Below, in pieces: positions 1 through 51,125 of a stretch of 64,000 nt of DNA. The notes beneath the pieces are model-generated. The model saw only the letters and a list, made by a program, of their open reading frames with translations, ran no database searches and was not told the DNA's origin. The translations under genes were made by a program, and so were the position numbers. Numbering within the stretch: position 1 is the stretch's first letter; the number at the start of each line of letters is the position of its first letter. The DNA is from Escherichia coli (GTDB lineage: Bacteria > Pseudomonadota > Gammaproteobacteria > Enterobacterales > Enterobacteriaceae), in the NCBI RefSeq assembly GCF_022846255.1, contig NZ_AP025682.1; one strand, given 5' to 3'.

Positions 1-184
1 ACCTCGCACGTTTTGACTCATATTCTGACAACACAGCGACACCTGGGCTAATTCGAAAAACAACGTCCTGCCACCGGATGGTGATGTTAAGGCATCTGAT
101 TCGGCCTGCGCCCTCGCGTAGGCCGAATACAGGATCTGCGCAATCAACGGGTAACAAACAGTTGAGTCAATTCAGTGCGCACTT

Positions 185-1738
185 TTATTTGATATCCTTC
201 ACGCGCATACCGTTGAGCTGTTCATCCGTAATGGTGTTGCCCGCTTTGAAGTAATCAACCACCGCGTGATAAACGTAATAACCGCCCGTTGTGTTACGCG
301 CTTTCCCTTCGGTAAAGGCGGTAAAACCATCTCCACCATCAGCAAGGAAACTCTGAGTAGCAATGTGATAAACCGTCGCATCTTCAATGGGTTTGCCATT
401 CAGAGTCAGTGTGATTACCCGCTGACCAACCGGCTTGCTGCTGTCGTACTTCATTTCCAGGCCTTTCGATACCTGTAAAACGCCATTGCTTAAACTTGCG
501 CCGTGTTCCATCAGACTGCGTAATTGTTTACCCGTGAGTTCCATCGTCACCAGTTCGTTGGGGAACGGGAACGTACTGATAACGCCGCCCATCGTGATCG
601 CCCCTGCGGGGATCTCATTGCGGATACCACCAGAGTTTGTTAACGCCAGTTGGGTATTTTTACCCGCTGCTGCCAGTAAAGCGTCAGCCGCCAGGTTCCC
701 GAGGGAAGCCGATTCACCATAGGCACGTTTTAATTCAACCGGCGATTGCGCCACCGTTTGTTGCACCACTTCATCAAGCTTTTTATTCCAGCCGTCGATC
801 ACCTGTTTCGTTTGCGGATCGGGCTTCCACTCGTCAGCGTAAATGGTTTTAAGCTCGAAGTTTTTCACCGTAAAATTATGCGGCTTCTCTTTGTAGTCGA
901 GAACCAGTTTGCCCACATCAATCCCGCCGCTGTCAGTGGAGAGGATGAGCGTATTGCCGACTTTAATCGGTTCCGGCGTACCCACATGTGCATGTCCGGT
1001 GATCAAAATATCCAGCCCTTTCACCTGACTTGCCGTCTGAATATCTTTATCCAACGCGCGACGCACATCTGTGCCTCCCATACTGGACTGGCGGGCCGGA
1101 ACACCTTCATGGATCAGGGCGACGGTCAAATCAACCTTGCCTTTAAGTTCATCGATATAACGTTGTAGCCATTTAATTTCATCACGCGCCTCAATACCCA
1201 CTCGCGTGGCAGCAGATACTGTGTCATTAAAGGCAAATACACCGTGCAAACCTATAACGCCTATTTTCACACCGTCTTTTTCGATGATGGTATAGGGCTT
1301 ATCCCAGAATGATTTACTGCTGTTCTGATAAAAAACATTGCCCTGCACAATCGGGAATTTTGCCTGACTCAACTGTAATAATGTGTTGTCCCAGCCGTGG
1401 TCAAATTCATGGTTGCCTATCGTGACGGCATCAAACGGCATAGTATTCATAATATCGATAATAGCCTTACCTTTGGTCAGGCTGCTGATATATGGCCCGG
1501 TAAAATAGTCGCCCGCATCAAAAAACCATGTCGCTTTATTTTTTGCTTTTTCTTGCTTAACCAGCGTAGTGATATTTGCCCAGCCGCCAATATCCCGTTT
1601 ACCGTTCGCAATCCACGGCACTTTATAAGGCTCTACATGTGCATGGAGGTCGTTAGTATAAATAATGGTGACATCTTTGGCGCAAGCCCAGAACGGCAAT
1701 GTTAATGCGATACCCGCAGCAAGTATTTTAATTTTCAT
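185..1738 (-). CDS. secreted UshA-family metallophosphoesterase / 5'-nucleotidase, paralog 1 (ORF extends to TTG at 1744; first ATG at 1738)
   Basis: N-terminal signal peptide; calcineurin-like phosphoesterase motifs [35 protein letters not shown]; long C-terminal domain as in 5'-nucleotidases; SD-like AAGGGA upstream of ATG. Confidence 0.8.
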
Positions 1739-1797
1739 AAACAATCCCTTTCAGTGAGATAAAGGATTGCTACATTACGTTCTGAAAGACTTATTTA

Positions 1798-1813
1798 TGT
1801 GAGAGTAATCACA
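1798..1813. promoter_or_regulatory. candidate CRP binding site TGTGAgagtaaTCACA in divergent promoter region
   Basis: both half-sites match consensus TGTGA-N6-TCACA exactly; centred about 65 bp from each flanking start codon. Confidence 0.6.
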
Positions 1814-1870
1814 TCCGCAGGGGATAGTTGCCGGACAAAATCAACGACCTTGTGAAATCGTTGGTGATAT

Positions 1871-2995
1871 ATGTCGACTCTGTTTACGATTAATGCCTGT
1901 AAAACGTTCGGTTGCCGAAATTTGGGATTGGCCTCATCGGAAGATTACAGTTGGCCAGACTATAAACTGGGTTATCCGGCACTGCACTGTCGGGCATGTG
2001 GAAGTTACCCGCCGTTGTTTGACGAACAGCAATTTCGTGACTGGTTGTCAGTTCACTTATCTACTTTTGCAACTGAGAAAGGTCATTTCTGCCCGGTATG
2101 TTATGGCACAGACATGATTTGTTATGGTCACAATCCACAGGGTTCGCAACGCATTCAATGCCGTAACTGCAAAAAAGTCTGGACGCCTAAAAAATATCAG
2201 AAAGAAATTACGCATCCCCAGGCCATTGAAACCGTTCAACTGTTCATACCCTTTCAAGGGGCCAGTGCAGTACAAAAACTGTATGTTTTAGTCAGTCTTG
2301 ACGCCACTCGTGGCAACATTCTTCATCTCTCCACGAATTATACGCAACATCAGACAGGAGACAGTCTGCGGTACAGTTACAAGGGCAACACAGAACCAAC
2401 TATGCACCATCGCGATATCGTGCAGAAGGTAGATATGCGTGAAGCGCAATTCTTGCGCCGGAGCCAGTTCGATGAAATTCAGTATGGCAGTGCTGTACTC
2501 AAGCGCAACGGTAAGGGAGCCATACTACGCCCGGTTATCACGGCACACGGGCATTTCAGAATACTGAAAATCCGCTATCCAGATGTCAAAACGCATATTA
2601 TTTCACACGAATGTTTTCTAAGAGGCGCAATTATTACAGCCTGGGCAGATCAGTTCCGCCAACAACAAGGTGAACTTTGGTTCGTAGAAGAAGAAATCAG
2701 TGACAGTAACGCTGATACGCCCTGGCATTTTAAGGGAACGACATACCATGGTTGGTGGCAAAATCAGTGGCAGCGCTGGGAGCAGGGGAATAACTGCAAG
2801 ATGGTCTGCCTACTCACGGGAGCCTGCTTAGAAAGGGGCGCAAATGTTTCTCTGGCAACCAGTCGTTGTTTTATCACATGGCTGACAGACCAACACGACT
2901 TTACCCAAAGCGCGTTATTATCCGCAGGTCGCGTAACACAAATGCTGACCTCACTGGCGTTAAAATACAATGAATCGCTCACTCCATCTTGTTAG
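1871..2995 (+). CDS. zinc-ribbon protein of unknown function; second Cys cluster resembles IS1 InsA / transposase-type zinc ribbon; possibly transposase-derived
   Basis: 374-aa ORF; C-x4-C...C-x2-C and CPVC-x19-CRNC-x3-W motifs in first 100 aa; no terminal inverted repeats seen around it. Confidence 0.5.
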   Translation: MSTLFTINACKTFGCRNLGLASSEDYSWPDYKLGYPALHCRACGSYPPLFDEQQFRDWLSVHLSTFATEKGHFCPVCYGTDMICYGHNPQGSQRIQCRNCKKVWTPKKYQKEITHPQAIETVQLFIPFQGASAVQKLYVLVSLDATRGNILHLSTNYTQHQTGDSLRYSYKGNTEPTMHHRDIVQKVDMREAQFLRRSQFDEIQYGSAVLKRNGKGAILRPVITAHGHFRILKIRYPDVKTHIISHECFLRGAIITAWADQFRQQQGELWFVEEEISDSNADTPWHFKGTTYHGWWQNQWQRWEQGNNCKMVCLLTGACLERGANVSLATSRCFITWLTDQHDFTQSALLSAGRVTQMLTSLALKYNESLTPSC

Positions 2996-3114
2996 TCAAT
3001 ACACTCGACAAACGACCATAAATTAAGAGAGAGCACTACCTTTCATTTAATTAAATATATAAATGTATGACCGTGAAATATAATCATGGTCAATGTTTAA
3101 TTAATAACATTATT

Positions 3115-3130
3115 TGTTACTAAGATCACA
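3115..3130. promoter_or_regulatory. weak CRP-like site TGTTActaagaTCACA upstream of nucleotidase paralog 2
   Basis: one perfect half-site, one with a G-to-T change; about 100 bp upstream of start codon. Confidence 0.3.
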
Positions 3131-3162
3131 CAATACTTTTCTGAACTATGCTTACATAAAAT

Positions 3163-3179
3163 AAGACACGATGTGTCTT
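3163..3179 (+). terminator. hairpin aagacac-gat-gtgtctt followed by T-rich tract
   Basis: 7-bp stem, 3-nt loop, then tttatttaaa; lies between zinc-ribbon gene and paralog 2. Confidence 0.35.
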
Positions 3180-3224
3180 TTATTTAAATAATTCAACAAA
3201 TGTAACACACCCTATCCAGGAGGG

Positions 3225-4778
3225 ATGATGAAAACTGTATTTACAACATTATCAGTCATATTCGGCGTGATATTTTCTCACAGTGTTCTAGCTCAGGACG
3301 TTACTATTTATTATACGAATGACATTCACGCACATGTCAATCCGGCAAAAATCATCGCTGTTGATAAGAACAGACTTATAGGTGGTATGGCTAATATTGC
3401 AGGCATCGTTAATGAAGCGAAGAAAAAAAGCAAAGATGTGTTTTTCTTTGATGCAGGCGACTATTTTACCGGGCCGTATATCAGCACCCTGACCAAAGGT
3501 GAAGCTATTATTGATATCATGAACACTATGCCCTTTGATGCGGTGTCTGTTGGTAATCACGAGTTCGATCACGGTGTGCCCAATATGGTGTCTCAGTTAT
3601 CAAAAGCAAAATTTCCCATTCTGCTGGGAAATATCTACTACACCGATACGAATAAACCAGTTTGGGATCATCCGTGGACCATTATCGAAAAAGATGGTTT
3701 AAAGATTGGTGTGATTGGATTGCATGGCGCATTCGCTTTCTATGATACAGTCGCGGCAAAAGCACGTGAAGGCGTAGAAGCCAGAGACGAAATTAAATAT
3801 TTAAATAAAGCACTTGCAGAATTAAAAGGTAAAGTCGACATTACCGTTTTGCTAATTCACGAAGGTGTCCCGGCGCGTCAATCAAGCTTTGGTAGTAAAG
3901 ATGTGGAGCGGCTACTACAGGCAGATATTGAGACAGCTAAAAAAGTGAATGGTGTTGATGTCTTAATTACCGGTCACGCACATGTCGGAACACCGCAACC
4001 AATAAAAGTTAATAACACATTAATTGTATCTACCGATGCATACGGCACCAACATCGGAAAACTTGTGCTTGATTACAATCCGAAAACGAAGAAAATTGAT
4101 AGTTATAATGGTGAGTTAATCACCATCTTTGCAGATCAATTTAAACCTGACACCATCGTTCAAAATACTATTGATAAATGGAGTGCAAAGCTTAACAAAA
4201 TAACACAGGAAGTTGTCGGCCATTCTCCCGTAGTTTTAACACGTGAGTATGGTAGTTCCTCTTCTACCGGCAACCTTATTCTTGATGCAATGATGGAAAA
4301 AACACCTGATGCCGTTGCCGGATTTCAAAATAGCGGTGGGATGCGAGCTGATTTTCCTAAAGGCGATATCACACTGGGAGATGTTATTAGCACATTCCCC
4401 TTTAATAATGACCTCATCGAGATGGATTTGACGGGCCGCGATCTCAAATCATTGATGACGCATGCAACCAATCTAACTAACGGTGTGTTACAAGTTTCTA
4501 AAAGTGTTGCGGTTGTCTATGACAGCAAAAAACCACTCAACCAACGGTTAATCTCTTTCACCATTAACGGCAAACCCGTGGAAGATAATCAAACATATCG
4601 TATTGCCACGCACTCCTTTTGTGCCAGTGGTGGTGACGGTTTTGAAGCATTTTTGAATGGAAAAAATGTGAAAACGATACCGGGAACAACCTCGGCGGAA
4701 TCTATCATCGATTATTTCAAAAATCACAAGCCTATCACCCCAGACTTAACTAAACGAGTCATGGACGTCGCCAAATAA
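3225..4778 (+). CDS. secreted UshA-family metallophosphoesterase / 5'-nucleotidase, paralog 2 (start may be second ATG at 3228)
   Basis: signal peptide ending VLA-QDV; motifs [35 protein letters not shown]; AT-rich coding sequence. Confidence 0.8.
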   Translation: MMKTVFTTLSVIFGVIFSHSVLAQDVTIYYTNDIHAHVNPAKIIAVDKNRLIGGMANIAGIVNEAKKKSKDVFFFDAGDYFTGPYISTLTKGEAIIDIMNTMPFDAVSVGNHEFDHGVPNMVSQLSKAKFPILLGNIYYTDTNKPVWDHPWTIIEKDGLKIGVIGLHGAFAFYDTVAAKAREGVEARDEIKYLNKALAELKGKVDITVLLIHEGVPARQSSFGSKDVERLLQADIETAKKVNGVDVLITGHAHVGTPQPIKVNNTLIVSTDAYGTNIGKLVLDYNPKTKKIDSYNGELITIFADQFKPDTIVQNTIDKWSAKLNKITQEVVGHSPVVLTREYGSSSSTGNLILDAMMEKTPDAVAGFQNSGGMRADFPKGDITLGDVISTFPFNNDLIEMDLTGRDLKSLMTHATNLTNGVLQVSKSVAVVYDSKKPLNQRLISFTINGKPVEDNQTYRIATHSFCASGGDGFEAFLNGKNVKTIPGTTSAESIIDYFKNHKPITPDLTKRVMDVAK

Positions 4779-4818
4779 AATCTCATTTATCAGTCAATTT
4801 ATTTAACAAGGAATGTGA

Positions 4819-6438
4819 ATGAAAACAGCGCAGTGTACTTTACTTGCCGCAACATTGCTGACTATTTTTTCGACCTCAGTCATGGCGCAGGATGTCACGA
4901 TTATTTATACCAATGATCTTCACGCTCATGTGGATTCCTATAAAGTACCGTATGTCGCAGACGGAAAACGCGACATTGGTGGCTTTGCCAATATATCCAC
5001 GTTAGTAAAACAAGAGAAAGCCAAAAATAAAGCCACCTTTTATTTTGATGCTGGAGACTATTTCACCGGGCCATATATCAGTAGCCTGACAAAGGGCGAA
5101 GCAATAATTGATATTATGAATACCATGCCTTTTGACGCAGTATCAATCGGTAATCATGAGTTTGACCATGGCTGGGATAATGCCCTCCGACAATTAAGCA
5201 AAGCGAATTTCCCTGTTTTATTAGGCAATGTTTATCATAAAGAGAGTGAGAAACCCTTCTGGAACAAGCCCTACACCATCCTGGAAAAAGATGGCATCAA
5301 GATTGGTATTGTTGGGCTACACGGCGTATTTGCATTTAATGACACGGTCTCGGAGCTCTCTCTCCAGGGACTCGATAATGACAATAATAACCGATTTGAT
5401 AAATCTTCCGCGACCCTCAAGAATCAGGGGATTGAAGCACGTGATGAAGTGAAGTATTTGCAGCATTATATCGATGAGTTACGTGATAAGGTTGACCTCA
5501 CCGTGGCGCTGGTTCATGAAGGCGTACCGGCGCGTCAGTCCAGCATTGGCAATACAGATGTTAGACGTGCGCTGGATAAAGATATTCAAACCGCAAGCAA
5601 GGTGAAAGGATTGGATATTCTGATTACCGGGCATGCCCACGTCGGAACGCCAGAACCAATCAAAGTCGGCAACACCTTAATCCTTTCGACTGACAGTGGC
5701 GGTATCGATATTGGTAAATTAATCCTTGATGTCAACCCTACAGCTCGTACTCATAAAGTGAAGAGCTTTGAGCTGAAAACGGTTTATGCCGATGAATGGA
5801 TACCCGATCCAACCACACAAAAAGTTATCAATGGCTGGAATAAAAAACTGGCGGATCTTGTACGCCAACCAGTCGGTGAATCATCGATTGCATTAACTCG
5901 TGCCTACGGTGAGTCATCGCAACTTGGCAACCTGTTTACCGATGCAATGCTTGTCGCTGCACCGACTGCACAAATTGCGTTGATAAACTCCGGCAGTTTA
6001 CGTGCTGATATAAATGCAGGCACGATTACCTTTGGTGACATTACCAGTACATTCCCCTTCAAGAATGAACTTACTGAAATGGATCTCAGCGGTAAGGATC
6101 TGCGTAACCTACTGGAACACGGGGCATCGCTTACCAATGGCATCCTGCAAATGTCAAAAGGCGCAGAAATGCGCTATACCCTGCAGAAACCAGTAGGTCA
6201 GCGCATTGTATCTTTTAAAATTAATGGTGAAGAGATCGTTGATACGAATATTTACCATGTTGCGACTACGACTTTCCTTGCACTTGGGGGCGATGGTTTT
6301 CTGGCATTCAAAGAAGGGAAAAATGTCCAGGTCCGCGCCGGAAATAACATGTCCAATGTCGTAATCGATTATTTTAAGAAAGGCCACAAGATTACTCCTG
6401 CACAGGTAAATGAAATGCGGGTAGAAGTAAGCAAATAA
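4819..6438 (+). CDS. secreted UshA-family metallophosphoesterase / 5'-nucleotidase, paralog 3 (carries an 18-aa insertion relative to paralogs 1 and 2)
   Basis: signal peptide ending VMA-QDV; same five phosphoesterase motifs; SD AAGGAA upstream; starts 40 bp after paralog 2. Confidence 0.8.
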   Translation: MKTAQCTLLAATLLTIFSTSVMAQDVTIIYTNDLHAHVDSYKVPYVADGKRDIGGFANISTLVKQEKAKNKATFYFDAGDYFTGPYISSLTKGEAIIDIMNTMPFDAVSIGNHEFDHGWDNALRQLSKANFPVLLGNVYHKESEKPFWNKPYTILEKDGIKIGIVGLHGVFAFNDTVSELSLQGLDNDNNNRFDKSSATLKNQGIEARDEVKYLQHYIDELRDKVDLTVALVHEGVPARQSSIGNTDVRRALDKDIQTASKVKGLDILITGHAHVGTPEPIKVGNTLILSTDSGGIDIGKLILDVNPTARTHKVKSFELKTVYADEWIPDPTTQKVINGWNKKLADLVRQPVGESSIALTRAYGESSQLGNLFTDAMLVAAPTAQIALINSGSLRADINAGTITFGDITSTFPFKNELTEMDLSGKDLRNLLEHGASLTNGILQMSKGAEMRYTLQKPVGQRIVSFKINGEEIVDTNIYHVATTTFLALGGDGFLAFKEGKNVQVRAGNNMSNVVIDYFKKGHKITPAQVNEMRVEVSK

Positions 6439-6514
6439 CAAAAACTTATAATACCATTCATTCACTGGATGACATTATTTCTCTCTAAATCAACAATATA
6501 TAAGAGATATATTT

Positions 6515-7375
6515 ATGTATATAAAAAAGCACTGGATAGCTTTATCCATTCTATTAATACCTTGCATTGGAAACGCTCAGGAAATTAAAATTGATGAAAG
6601 CTCGTTACATCAAAGCTTGAATGTCATTGGTCGCACAGACTCTCGCTTTGGCCCAAGACTGACTAACGACCTCTACCCTGAATATACTGTAGCAGGAAGA
6701 AAAGACTGGTTTGATTTTTATGGTTATGTTGATCTACCGAAATTCTTTGGCGTCGGCAGTCACTATGATGTTGGGATCTGGGATGAAGGCTCACCACTAT
6801 TTACGGAAATAGAACCTCGGTTTTCCATTGACAAATTGACCGGATTAAATCTTGCGTTCGGCCCATTTAAAGAATGGTTCATTGCAAACAACTATGTCTA
6901 TGATATGGGTGACAACCAGTCATCCCGGCAAAGTACATGGTATATGGGGCTTGGTACAGATATCGACACGGGTCTACCAATTAAGCTTTCTGCCAATATA
7001 TACGCCAAGTATCAGTGGCAAAACTATGGTGCCGCTAATGAAAATGAATGGGACGGATATCGATTCAAAATAAAATATAGCATCCCTCTTACAAATTTAT
7101 TCGGAGGGCGATTGGTATACAATAGTTTTACTAACTTTGATTTTGGCTCCGATCTTGCGGACAAGTCACACAATAATAAACGAACCAGTAATGCTATTGC
7201 TTCAAGCCATATCCTTTCCCTTCTATATGAACACTGGAAATTTGCATTTACACTACGTTATTTTCACAACGGTGGACAATGGAATGCGGGAGAGAAGGTT
7301 AACTTCGGAGATGGTCCATTTGAATTAAAAAATACAGGATGGGGAACCTATACTACTATTGGTTATCAATTTTAA
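6515..7375 (+). CDS. Tsx-like nucleoside-specific outer-membrane channel (Tsx/OmpK family paralog)
   Basis: 286 aa, signal peptide, C-terminal Phe; blocks such as [37 protein letters not shown] and [26 protein letters not shown] recalled from Tsx. Confidence 0.7.
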
Positions 7376-7472
7376 ATTAGGTGACATTTTAGATATTGTT
7401 ACTTAATGTCATTTTGTAATTGTCATTAATAACTTCACCATTCACTCTGTTACTTCATCGCTCAACACAAAA

Positions 7473-7492
7473 GCCCCCTTATTACCGGGGGC
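7473..7492 (-). terminator. hairpin gccccc-N8-gggggc with T-rich tract on the minus strand
   Basis: inverted repeat followed on minus strand by ttttgtgtt. Confidence 0.35.
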
Positions 7493-7556
7493 ACTGACCA
7501 AAGGCAAAATGACAATCAATCACCACTTCCCCAGGAAGAGGTTTCGGGGTGACAAC

Positions 7557-7583
7557 AAAAGCTGGCAACTGCCAGCTTTTGTT
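7557..7583. terminator. bidirectional intrinsic terminator between Tsx-like gene and metL
   Basis: 8-bp stem agctggca/tgccagct flanked by an A-run and a T-run. Confidence 0.6.
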
Positions 7584-7592
7584 CAATAATCA

Positions 7593-20912: not shown

Positions 20913-22338
20913 TAATGCCAGTCAGTTAAGCAACTGACTGGCTCTTTTTCGGGGCTGTGGGGTATTTCCAGGGCCTCTCCTTTACCACTCTCGGGAAGGC
21001 CCTTTCCCTTCTTGTCGGTAATTTCACAAGTTGTCCCATACTTGCAAGATCGCGCATCAGCTCCGGTATACGTCCCGGTGAAGCGCCCTGCAATGTCATC
21101 AGCATTCTCATCACCATTCCACATGATTCTGAGAAACTCAGTTGATTCGGCCAGTAACCTTTCAGATGTTCCGCCATTTTAATCATCTGATATCTCACCA
21201 GATTATAAGCCAGTAAGACACCCCACAGCTCTTGCTCCACAAGCTCCGGTTTTTTACTTCTCAGCGTCAGCCTGCTCAGTTGCATCGTCTGTTTTATCTC
21301 CCTGTATCCCAGTTCGATTTCCCAGCGATGACTGTACAGATCCGCCATTTCTCCTCCGGGGAAGCGCATGGCGTCCGTCATCGACGTCAGCAGATGGCAG
21401 ACTTTTCCTTTGCGCGTCACGGTCAGCAGGCGGGCTGTCACTTCATTTCCCAGTCCCGGCCACTTTTTTCGTGCCTGCGGGCTGGTTTTCAGCTTCACCA
21501 GATGATCGCCTTTACCCAGTTTTCTGATCTCTTCATATTGCGCTCCCTTTCTGAGAGGTATCATCCAGTGGCGGTGTTCTCCCGCCAGGCTCCAGGCATT
21601 TAACAGTCCCAGTGAGTAATAACCTTTATCCATTAACGTCAGAGTGTTATCGCCGGTTTGTTCTATAAGTTGCTCAGCAAGCTCATTTTCGCTGTTCTTC
21701 ATCGTGCCGAAGGCTGCAGCCGTCAGCAGATGGCTGGTCAGTTCCATCTGGCAGACCATTTTGACCTGCGGGTAGAGCGCCGGGTTCCCGGCATGTGTCT
21801 GGCGGGGGAAGGCTGCATCGTTCTCTGGTGTATCCGGTGTGCGCCAGAACACACCATCGATGGCCAGCAGGGTCAGGCCGCACCAGTGCGGATGCGGCGT
21901 GGCGTTATGCCAGAGCTGCGCTGTTTTCGTGAACACGCGGCGGACAGCCTCACTTCCCAGGCGCTGGCGGGCCTGAATAACGGCACTGGGGGCAACGAAG
22001 GGGCGATTGCCCGGCAGCATGATGTCCAGGCGATTCACAATCTGGTGAAGAGGTTCTTTACGCTCAAGCGCCATGCCAACAATACACCAGACCATCATTT
22101 CGAGGGGAAGACGGCGCTTGCGTAGCGTTACAGTACCTGATTCGGCAAGGCAACGAGAGATGAGTTCGGGGTCGAGGTAATCCCCCAGAGAAGTCAGTGG
22201 GTTACGCAGAGAATCGTAACGGGATACCAGATCAAGAGCCTGTCCAATGTGCATAAAAAAATCCGGAAACAAGTGAGCGTTTCCGGATTCTTACACAGCC
22301 ACTGGATCGGTCAACTGATCCTTAACTGATCGGCATTA
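20913..22338 (-). mobile_element. insertion sequence IS4, 1426 bp, with about 18-bp imperfect terminal inverted repeats
   Basis: ends TAATGCCAGTCAGTTAAG and CTTAACTGATCGGCATTA; single 442-aa transposase ORF; flanked by 12-bp direct repeats. Confidence 0.9.
20926..22254 (-). CDS. insG: IS4 transposase
   Basis: 442 aa from [16 protein letters not shown]; ORF track extends 6 codons upstream. Confidence 0.9.
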
Positions 22339-22350
22339 CACCGCAAGGTG
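22339..22350. repeat. IS4 target-site duplication, right copy (caccgcaaggtg)
   Basis: direct repeat of 20901-20912. Confidence 0.85.
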
Positions 22351-50291: not shown

Positions 50292-51125
50292 TTAATTGCT
50301 CAAACGCTGCGGATGGGTATAAACCGTTGCCCGACCCGGTTTACAAAAGCCCACCAGCGTCAGATTACAGCGCTCAGCCACTTCTACAGCAAGTGTGGTC
50401 GCGGCAGACACCGCAAACAAAATCTCTACGCCGCACATCGCCGACTTTTGCACCATTTCATAACTGGCACGGCTGGAAACCAGCACCGCACCTTGCTGCC
50501 AGCTTTCCCCTTCTTGTGACCGGCGGCCTAACAGTTTGTCCAGCGCCACATGGCGACCCACGTCTTCATGCCCGCCGACCAGTTCGCCAGATGGCAACAT
50601 CCATGCAGCGGCGTGAGTACAACCAGTCAGTTGCCCCACTGGCTGGAAATCATTGAGATGACGTAATGCATCATCCAGTTTGTTGAGATCAAACATCTGG
50701 GTGAACGGCAGCGGCTGCACCGGTTTACCGATATCGTTAAGCTGTTCTACACCGCATACGCCACAGCCCGTACGTCCCGCCAGCGCCCGGCGGCGCTCCT
50801 TCAACCCCATAAAGCGGCGGCTGGAAAGCTCAATTTGTACTTCCAGGCCATTACAGGAAGGAACGACATCCATGCCGAAGATATCGCGCGGGCTTTCGAT
50901 AATTCCTTCGGAAAGCGAAAAACCGAGCGCAAAGTACTCAAGGTCTTTGGGCGACGCCATCATCACCACATGCGAAATACCGTTGTAGACCAGCGCAACG
51001 GGAACTTCTTCCGCCACCTCATCTAACCGTGGGTGTTGTAAATCATCACGCCGCCATAACTCAATTTGACGAACACCTGTGATATTTGTCACATTTTCGA
51101 TTTCTTTTTGCTGTGTTTTTTTCAC
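50292..51125 (-). CDS. fdhD: sulfurtransferase / formate dehydrogenase accessory protein FdhD
   Basis: 277 aa, [28 protein letters not shown]; divergent from fdoG. Confidence 0.95.

Follow-up and report, generated by a model that had tools for sequence, protein, structure and literature searches.

The 64,000-nucleotide stretch of Escherichia coli DNA analyzed here (contig NZ_AP025682.1; hereafter, the window) carries next to metL a group of five genes, which encode three related nucleotidases (Nt1, Nt2, and Nt3), a Tsx-like outer membrane channel (Tsx2), and a zinc-ribbon protein (ZnR). An earlier reading made from the letters alone (the sequence-only reading) had proposed the same five open reading frames (ORFs), and both their coordinates and the gaps of 40 bp between Nt2 and Nt3 and of 76 bp between Nt3 and Tsx2 agreed with the ORF list. 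For Nt1, the reading frame stood and the likely start was moved to the ATG given in Table 1. The locus had been placed directly downstream of metL; it does adjoin metL, and its position is refined here to the interval between metL and metF. In strain M1/5, metF is the next gene beyond Nt1. In K-12, metF directly follows metL, as had been stated, with a 348-bp spacer between the two adjacent genes, and the five-gene locus is absent.

Table 1. Features of the metL-adjacent locus (positions in the window)
Feature	Position	Strand	Description
Left noncoding flank	1-184		Boundary to the conserved metF promoter region falls outside the window
Nt1	185-1744 (ORF)	-	Likely start ATG 1738 (517 aa), as in RefSeq and orthologs
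Nt1/ZnR divergent control region	1739-1870		132 bp
ZnR	1871-2995	+	374 aa; cytoplasmic, IS1-transposase-derived, putative regulator
Recombination breakpoint	~1900-2300		Drop in DNA identity between native left part and probably imported right part
AT-rich spacer 5' of Nt2	2996-3224		GC content 0.34-0.39
Nt2	3225-4778	+	Predicted secreted 5'-nucleotidase, 516-517 aa; most divergent paralog
Nt3	4819-6438	+	Predicted secreted 5'-nucleotidase, 539 aa
Tsx2 (Tsx-like)	6515-7375	+	Predicted second outer membrane nucleoside-channel paralog, 286 aa
Right flank	7376-7592		Terminator-like hairpins 7473-7492 and 7554-7583; junction at the metL stop codon
metL	7593-10025	-	Followed by metB and metJ

Homology to K-12 stopped at position 5953 of locus L001, equivalent to window position -47, which places the left junction approximately 47 bp outside the left end of the window, and it started again at 7594 (right junction). 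The K-12 junction itself retains approximately 200 bp of unrelated sequence. No insertion sequence (IS)-like terminal repeats, flanking repeats, tRNA gene, or integrase was seen at the locus. An Rfam scan of window positions 1 to 8000 (E ≤ 1) gave no match and thus no known riboswitch or small RNA. Likewise, PADLOC returned no match for any of the five proteins, so the locus is not a known defense system.

Nucleotidases and the Tsx-type channel

Nt1 and Nt3 contained the Pfam domains Metallophos (PF00149) and 5_nucleotid_C (PF02872; E-values of 2.6e-39 and 2.4e-36, respectively), and the same two domains were seen in Nt2 via a cluster with 99% identity. Nt1 shared 68% identity with Nt3 and 56% with Nt2, close to the earlier estimate by eye of about 70% for the first pair, with Nt2 the more divergent. 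The motifs ND.HAH, DAGD, GNHEFD, HEG, and GHAH were invariant in all three enzymes and aligned with the metal ligands of CD73; together with the Pfam check, this bears out the claim that all three possess complete metallophosphatase motifs. The NSGG.R phosphate motif, the FPF and GGDGF motifs with their two base-stacking Phe residues, and the catalytic His-Asp pair were also kept in Nt1-3 and, like the metal ligands, aligned to human CD73 and the Thermus thermophilus 5'-nucleotidase (4H2I, 2Z1A), even though identity to these two enzymes was only ~25 to 30%. We take NSGG.R, FPF, and GGDGF to correspond to CD73 N390/R395, F417, and F500. In contrast to CD73, which is glycosylphosphatidylinositol anchored, the bacterial enzymes are predicted to be periplasmic.

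Every NCBIfam model of the UshA/CpdB/NadN/YfkN/SoxB superfamily was matched by Nt1-3, and none at its curated cutoff. The three enzymes scored 153.5, 167.3, and 157.4 bits against the UshA equivalog NF007109 (cutoff, 600), 84 to 101 bits against the CpdB model NF006938 (cutoff, 486), and 120 to 135 bits against the NadN model TIGR01530 (cutoff, 436). Judged from these scores, Nt1-3 are a subfamily of their own and not orthologs of UshA, CpdB, or NadN. The earlier assignment to the UshA/CpdB family therefore stands at the level of the UshA/CD73 superfamily but not at that of orthology.

Nt1 is ~99% identical to the protein in Protein Data Bank (PDB) entries 3IVD and 3IVE, deposited as "Nucleotidase," which we take to be a structural genomics entry for CFT073 c4898 with uridine and cytidine ligands. 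Neither a publication nor activity data for these entries was found in the literature searched, nor was a published hydrolysis assay for Nt1-3. The next-closest solved proteins to Nt1 were the T. thermophilus 5'-nucleotidase, snake-venom 5'-nucleotidases, and human CD73, followed by NadN and UshA. As the CD73-type ligand, phosphate, and base-stacking motifs are all kept, Nt1-3 are most likely active 5'-nucleotidases and not cyclic phosphodiesterases.

The N termini of all three enzymes and of Tsx2 resemble Sec signal peptides by inspection, with a hydrophobic core and an A-x-A site, which agrees with the signal peptides assigned earlier to the enzymes; the cleavage sites read in this way were WACA|KD, VLA|QD, and VMA|QD for the enzymes and GNA|QE for Tsx2. 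Processing of Nt1 as a lipoprotein (WAC|A) was considered and rejected, since the Cys at this site is replaced by Ser in Citrobacter and Superficieibacter.

When 53 nucleotidases from related loci were clustered, they fell into three groups, namely, a tight Nt1 group (n = 35; 89% within-group identity), an Nt3 type, and an Nt2 type. Across genera, Nt1 proteins at the metF-metL site were 87 to 98% identical, compared with 90 to 95% for MetL and 91 to 96% for MetF, and the ratio of nonsynonymous to synonymous substitution rates (dN/dS) of Nt1 was 0.014 to 0.09. The nearest relatives of Nt2 outside E. coli were 72 to 76% identical. Nt3 carries an insertion of ~20 aa in the metallophosphatase domain (residues ~180 to 201; nucleotides 5356 to 5421), which is conserved, as all six Nt3-type orthologs have 536 to 539 aa. 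By these comparisons, Nt1, Nt2, and Nt3 represent old, separately maintained ortholog groups that co-occur in other genera. Such groups fit a division of labor, so the subspecialization proposed in the sequence-only reading is retained, but they fit a recent triplication less well.

Tsx2 scored 487.9 bits against NCBIfam NF011686 (cutoff, 311) and matched Pfam Channel_Tsx (PF03502) with an E-value of 2.6e-69. Its residues 31 to 286 aligned to residues 13 to 272 of 1TLW and thus over the whole barrel (1TLW/1TLY). On the strength of these matches, Tsx2 is a true Tsx-family protein and a second Tsx paralog, as the sequence-only reading had supposed. However, the further idea that Tsx imports the products of the enzymes is topologically impossible: the products would form in the periplasm, inside the outer membrane, and a channel in that membrane can therefore let in only substrates or nucleosides from the exterior. 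Expression evidence found for the locus is limited to a 3.3 log2-fold increase of c4894 (Tsx2) on TosR overproduction in CFT073 (PMC5956150).

ZnR and the divergent control region

ZnR had previously been described as a zinc-ribbon protein. Indeed, it contains two Cys4 zinc ribbons (C10/C15/C40/C43 and C74/C77/C97/C100), but the description missed both the ~250-aa globular domain that follows, which has an RNase-H-like, transposase-type fold (AlphaFold2 predicted local distance difference test score, 93.6), and the transposase ancestry of the protein. Argonaute PIWI domains and endonuclease V are further matches to this fold. In Pfam, NCBIfam, and PHROGs, ZnR gave only a weak InsA/IS1 zinc-ribbon match at residues 74 to 105 (for the nucleotidases, PHROGs returned only an uninformative family), and matches to the PDB by sequence were at chance level. 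Its relatives in the AlphaFold database, from Salmonella, Klebsiella, Serratia, Proteus, Vibrio, and Photobacterium, are uncharacterized and carry the names "cytoplasmic protein," "InsA N-terminal domain protein," and "IS1 family transposase."

An exhaustive search of 1.84 billion representatives yielded a ZnR family of 123 clusters at 50% identity, ranging over Enterobacterales, Vibrionales, and Alteromonadales. The family profile matched IS1 InsA in HHalign (96.7% probability; E-value, 3.8e-10) over the zinc ribbon and, in longer members, the helix-turn-helix, and PF03811 was detected at E ≤ 1e-3 in 7 of 50 family members; no signal was obtained with IS1 InsB by HHalign. In an alignment of 50 sequences, R197, H228, H246, E247, W296, and W300 were invariant or nearly so. 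The DDE triad of transposases is degenerate, with equivalences set by secondary structure and not by superposition: position 144 is D or E in 37 of the 50 sequences, position 225 is Ala in 41 and no acidic residue follows β-strand 4, and E247 is the only DDE-type position kept.

The domain order of ZnR, a zinc ribbon (plus a helix-turn-helix in longer members) followed by an RNase-H-like DDE-type fold, is that of IS1 InsAB'. ZnR differs from InsA and InsAB' in having no conserved triad, no detectable similarity to InsB, and an extra N-terminal zinc ribbon. Unlike IS1, ZnR is usually single copy and syntenic, with an ORF that is intact in ~35 species, under purifying selection (dN/dS, 0.10 to 0.19), and located beside nucleotide or nucleoside genes, and neither terminal repeats nor a multicopy distribution was found. 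As the gene is intact, syntenic, under purifying selection, and free of terminal repeats, and as the triad is lost, we read ZnR from its sequence and predicted fold as a domesticated IS1-type transposase and not an IS element. The TnpB-derived TldR is an exapted transposon protein that acts as a bacterial regulator. ZnR resembles it as a mobile-element nuclease fold with an inactivated site that has become a host gene tied to what would be its target operons. However, the ancestor of ZnR is an IS1 DDE transposase and not a RuvC-type TnpB, regulation by ZnR is only presumed, and nothing at the ZnR locus points to a guide RNA (Rfam scan empty).

All close ZnR homologs lie ~133 bp from a divergent nucleotidase gene. 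Among distant homologs (20 to 39% identity), eight of eight informative contexts contained nucleotide or nucleoside genes; this count leaves out P0182, for which there was no contig, and P0197, for which the contig was too short. A divergent 5'-nucleotidase gene was found in Vibrio taketomensis, Proteus terrae, and Photobacterium, as well as at loci of Citrobacter and Atlantibacter (L040, L042, and L043), and in CP016307.1 a 5'-nucleotidase gene lies directly upstream on the same strand. Divergent nupC accompanies a purine/uridine phosphorylase (PNP-type) gene next to homolog P0140, and a divergent nupC-deoC-deoA-deoB-deoD cluster is present in Agarivorans. In Salmonella Give, the divergent genes encode a porin, a class B acid phosphatase (AphA-like), and a class II cyclic AMP (cAMP) phosphodiesterase (PDEase_II). 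An outer membrane channel combined with periplasmic phosphoesterases is thus a recurring pattern, in which the Salmonella Give variant has a general porin in place of Tsx. On Salmonella Give-type contigs (L045 to L047), the module with its 462-aa ZnR homolog is flanked by IS3-family (rve) transposase genes and may therefore be mobile.

The intergenic region between Nt1 and ZnR is highly conserved, with a mean column identity of 85% across five genera, which exceeds the identity of the ZnR protein, and with conserved blocks kept in ~30 species. It contains a perfect CRP-like palindrome, TGTGA-N6-TCACA, at 1798 to 1813 (an exact consensus match), whose center lies 67 and 65 bp from the Nt1 and ZnR start codons, respectively, a spacing that would suit a class II CRP site for both promoters. 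A conserved 14-mer, TTACGTTCTGAAAG, at 1775 to 1788 overlaps the putative Nt1 core promoter, and CAAAATCA...AAATCGTTGGTG is conserved at ~1836 to 1866, just 5' of the ZnR start. Two potential hairpins were rejected. In the Nt1 leader, CTTTCAG-N27-CTGAAAG lost its left arm and kept its right arm in loci L015 and L039, so this is a conserved DNA motif and not a maintained pairing, and in CAACGA...TCGTTG 5' of ZnR, the right arm alone is invariant.

CRP-like palindromes were also present 5' of most of the distant ZnR homologs. Words of the AAACGTTTG type, which we take to resemble CytR operators, occur in three distant ZnR-family regions, including those of V. taketomensis, Agarivorans, and CP016307.1. 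A k-mer search for an operator common to the distant contexts returned only CRP-like and promoter-like words. Within the locus, the spacer upstream of Nt2 holds a hairpin (3068 to 3092), a CRP-like site with one mismatch (3115 to 3130), and a palindrome, AAGACACGATGTGTCTT, at 3163 to 3179 that overlaps a promoter-like site. The only other exact CRP-type palindrome in the 64 kb is TGTGATATTTGTCACA at 51078 to 51093. CytR represses the regulon for nucleoside catabolism (tsx, deo, udp, cdd, and nupC/G); cytR itself lies at ~15280 to 16305, ~8 kb from the locus and after metJ-yiiX-rpmE-priA (coordinates by offset to locus L055), and this nearness is probably a coincidence of core gene order.

Distribution and history of the locus

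Comparison of the metL-metF junction separated a five-gene form from a two-gene core. A survey of 5,426 complete E. coli genomes showed the full five-gene locus in 658 and a match to only its first 2.8 kb in ~1,180 more; the remaining genomes (about two thirds, including K-12) gave trivial matches. The short form, found for example in ST131, consists of Nt1 and ZnR, with the 3' end of ZnR abutting metL. The five-gene carriers among those listed include M1/5, NC101, MP1, and avian isolates, which we recognize as presumably belonging to B2 extraintestinal pathogenic E. coli (ExPEC) or colibactin lineages.

A scan of one genome per species, in which an alignment of 12 closer sequences served as the query, gave 37 loci that were classed by tblastn. 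The divergent Nt1-ZnR pair occupies the metF-metL site in at least ten enterobacterial genera, with carriers in Citrobacter (many species), Klebsiella pneumoniae ATCC 13883, K. oxytoca, K. spallanzanii, Kosakonia, Phytobacter, Superficieibacter, Pseudocitrobacter, Kluyvera, and E. whittamii; in S. enterica subsp. arizonae, the pair is at the same site with a truncated ZnR. As Nt1 and ZnR are syntenic there across genera at core-gene identity, the most parsimonious and most likely history is that this site originally held the two-gene core, which K-12 then lost.

The right part of the locus appears to have a different history. Identity to the two-gene allele of ST131 is 95 to 100% up to ~1900, 82 to 94% up to ~2200, and 70 to 75% thereafter, and the synonymous divergence (dS) between five-gene and two-gene E. 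coli alleles is 1.09 for ZnR and 0.08 for Nt1. GC content is ~0.49 to 0.52 over most of Nt1 (~0.43 at its 5' end) and 0.34 to 0.47 from ZnR to Tsx2, compared with 0.55 to 0.61 in metL. From the drop in identity inside ZnR and the contrast in dS, the 3' part of ZnR together with Nt2, Nt3, and Tsx2 looks imported by recombination, and we infer that this block was added in some lineages, mostly B2 ExPEC. The sequence-only reading, which saw one horizontally acquired module in all five genes, would thus apply to these parts but not to Nt1 and the 5' part of ZnR, which look native.

Larger gene sets occur at other chromosomal sites. ZnR is divergent from Nt1-Nt2-Tsx-Nt3 in E. asburiae, Citrobacter sp. 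wls619, and E. coli SCPM-O-B-8794, from Nt-Tsx-Nt in a Klebsiella sp., and from Nt-Nt-Tsx in E. hormaechei. E. coli SCPM-O-B-8794 carries two modules (L009/L017), namely, the Nt1-ZnR pair at the metF-metL site and, on another contig, ZnR divergent from Nt1-Nt2-Nt2'-Tsx-Nt3, with four nucleotidases. In Citrobacter, genes for a LysR-family regulator and a carboxymuconolactone-decarboxylase-family protein lie between metF and Nt1 (L004, 5897 to 7272), which shows that the interval holds further lineage-specific cargo; the metF-Nt1 spacing in K. pneumoniae (L029) is similar to that in Citrobacter.

Whether this combination of genes had been described was a question left by the sequence-only reading. 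It is already present in RefSeq annotation, in PDB 3IVD/3IVE, and in a 2026 in silico description of the metL-to-metF region GR31 of the avian pathogenic E. coli strain BEN2908, which lists three UshA-domain ORFs and a Tsx homolog and proposes a role in nucleotide/nucleoside processing (PMC12928451). GR31 is given there as complete in all seven comparison-strain columns, which according to the footnote include RS218 and UTI89 (PMC12928451). The retrieved text of this account has four ORFs and does not mention ZnR, nor does it deal with the breakpoint, the control region, or an ancestral core of two genes (PMC12928451). The nucleotidase/Tsx locus is therefore known, annotated, and of a known kind but uncharacterized; searches of the literature turned up no functional work on it. 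In the same literature, no prior description was found of the two-gene core, the breakpoint in ZnR, or the conserved control region, nor of ZnR as an IS1-derived, catalytically degenerate family tied in three orders to the scavenging of nucleotides and nucleosides.

Elsewhere in the window, an IS4-family element lies between rraA and zapB (20912 to 22339); it is absent in M1/5 and present at this site in ~600 complete E. coli genomes. M1/5 has a P2-like prophage directly after fieF (L055, 22342 to 50000); at this point (~34830), the window continues without such a prophage into core genes (cpxA, rhaBA, and an fdnG-annotated formate dehydrogenase gene), as in most E. coli. In the region 34800 to 59700, matching genomes have a "carbohydrate porin" annotated among core genes (cpxA, rha, and fdn). 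Against complete RefSeq E. coli genomes, identity reached no more than 99.0 to 99.3%, in the island as well as in core DNA (34800 to 59700), so the 5,426 complete genomes include no close representative of the source strain.

Proposed function and its alternatives

We consider it reasonably probable that the locus is a catabolite-controlled nucleotide-scavenging module that includes a putative regulator domesticated from an IS1-type transposase. The family, motif, and Tsx evidence makes a role in converting nucleotides to nucleosides, which the sequence-only reading had put forward, the most reasonable one. Nt1-3 would be exported via Sec to the periplasm and act there as two-metal 5'-nucleotidases that convert 5'-nucleotides, and possibly nucleoside diphosphates, nucleoside triphosphates, and nucleotide-sugars, to nucleosides and phosphate, with the three ortholog groups probably covering different substrates. 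Entry would be via Tsx2 or porins, where Tsx2 would provide an extra outer membrane path for nucleosides and conceivably for nucleotide substrates, and the core NupC/NupG transporters and deo/udp/cdd enzymes would complete nucleoside uptake and catabolism. Nt1 and ZnR would be transcribed divergently from a control region centered on the CRP-type site, under cAMP-CRP control. That ZnR is the dedicated local regulator or sensor of the module has, from its sequence and setting, a little short of an even chance. A broader proposal, which we advance more tentatively, is that the ZnR family consists of exapted IS1-type transposases that no longer have transposition chemistry and now serve as dedicated transcription factors or nucleoside sensors for nucleotide/nucleoside scavenging operons, the proposed targets being operons for 5'-nucleotidases, AphA/CpdP-type enzymes, nupC, and deoCABD.

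The locus resembles the UshA/CpdB/AphA and Tsx set of E. coli, which is under CRP/CytR/DeoR control, in its putatively Sec-exported phosphoesterases, outer membrane channel, and probable cAMP-CRP control, and its products belong to the same protein superfamilies as UshA and Tsx. It differs from the scavenging set of K-12 in that the genes are clustered and not scattered, in its three conserved paralog groups, and in having ZnR as a partner where K-12 has a LacI- or DeoR-type repressor.

Several points weigh against the proposed module. With only UshA, CpdB, AphA, and Tsx, K-12 can already use nucleotides for growth. CRP (and CytR in vibrios) might be enough to explain the coexpression, in which case ZnR may be a coregulated protein. 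The CRP site at 1798 to 1813 is a consensus match and as such a candidate only, and the signal peptides of Nt1-3 and Tsx2 rest on judgment by eye. No motif of the Nt1/ZnR control region recurred above chance 5' of Nt2. Furthermore, the 374-aa enterobacterial ZnR subfamily has lost the InsA-type helix-turn-helix of the longer members, which weakens the argument for DNA binding and is the main caveat to a regulatory role.

It is highly improbable that the enzymes mainly degrade signaling nucleotides (2',3'- and 3',5'-cyclic nucleotides, c-di-AMP, c-di-GMP, cGAMP, and linear products), with signal specificity as the reason for their triplication. Weak CpdB and YfkN model matches, the hydrolysis of cyclic dinucleotides by the superfamily members CdnP and CpdB, and the class II cAMP phosphodiesterase of the Salmonella Give module speak for such a role. 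However, CpdB-type models scored 58 to 101 bits against cutoffs of 486 to 1,419, the best matches were the 5'-nucleotidase half of YfkN and true 5'-nucleotidases, the CD73-type phosphate and base-stacking residues are conserved, and neither a PADLOC match nor any defense or signaling gene was found nearby. Cyclic or dinucleotide signals, suggested earlier as possible substrates, are thus unsupported: the scores fall below the CpdB cutoff, and the nearest solved relatives are 5'-nucleotidases. The resemblance to CD73 could also be taken to mean that Nt2, Nt3, and Tsx2 are an ExPEC host-interaction factor that converts host ATP or AMP to adenosine or strips nucleotides in urine or blood. We regard this as quite unlikely: the five-gene form is concentrated in strains that we recognize as B2 ExPEC or colibactin lineages, is found in BEN2908 and in all seven comparison-strain columns of the GR31 account, and includes a channel that responds to the virulence regulator TosR, but the enzymes appear to be soluble and periplasmic and not surface exposed, environmental Enterobacter, Citrobacter, and Klebsiella have the same sets of genes, and the literature searched yielded no infection phenotype. 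As for origin, a single recent foreign island between metL and metF is very unlikely. That K-12, like about two thirds of the complete E. coli genomes, lacks the locus and that GC content is low from ZnR to Tsx2 would suit it; against it stand the higher GC content of Nt1 and its synteny in at least ten genera at core-gene identity, the two-gene form in ~1,180 additional genomes, and the sharp drop in identity inside ZnR that separates two histories.

For ZnR, it is somewhat unlikely, though a serious option, that the protein is a coregulated cytoplasmic nuclease or a nucleoside- or nucleotide-binding salvage protein that acts through its RNase-H-like domain. The fold matches to Argonaute PIWI and endonuclease V, the conserved residues R197, H228, H246, E247, W296, and W300, which could form an active or ligand site, and the short subfamily without a helix-turn-helix are consistent with such a role, and CRP-like sites alone could account for coexpression. 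However, the homologous InsA module is a DNA-binding repressor, divergent genes with highly conserved intergenic DNA are typical of local regulators, and neighbors that are functionally coherent yet nonhomologous suit a regulator better than an enzyme. That ZnR is an IS1-family transposase or its decaying remnant, without a host function, is extremely improbable and largely refuted: the label "IS1 family transposase" on relatives and the weak IS1/InsA zinc-ribbon matches stand against an intact syntenic ORF under purifying selection in ~35 species, a DDE triad that is not conserved, no detectable InsB similarity, and the absence of terminal inverted repeats and of multiple copies.

With the proposed scavenging module, the nucleotidase and Tsx genes would be a modest addition, extending classical periplasmic nucleotide salvage in a clustered, lineage-variable form. 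The metL-metF junction of K-12 is most likely the derived state. The module is enriched in ExPEC-type E. coli and may aid fitness amid nucleic acid debris, as in the gut, urine, or biofilms. The ZnR family bears the database labels "cytoplasmic protein" and "IS1 family transposase," the latter wrongly, and looks like a domesticated transposase linked with a single metabolic theme in three gammaproteobacterial orders. If ZnR proteins do regulate the operons beside them, this would correct genome annotation, represent a clear case of DDE-transposase exaptation as a bacterial pathway regulator that is open to experiment, and fill a gap in the control of nucleoside catabolism in organisms such as Klebsiella, Citrobacter, Proteus, and vibrios.

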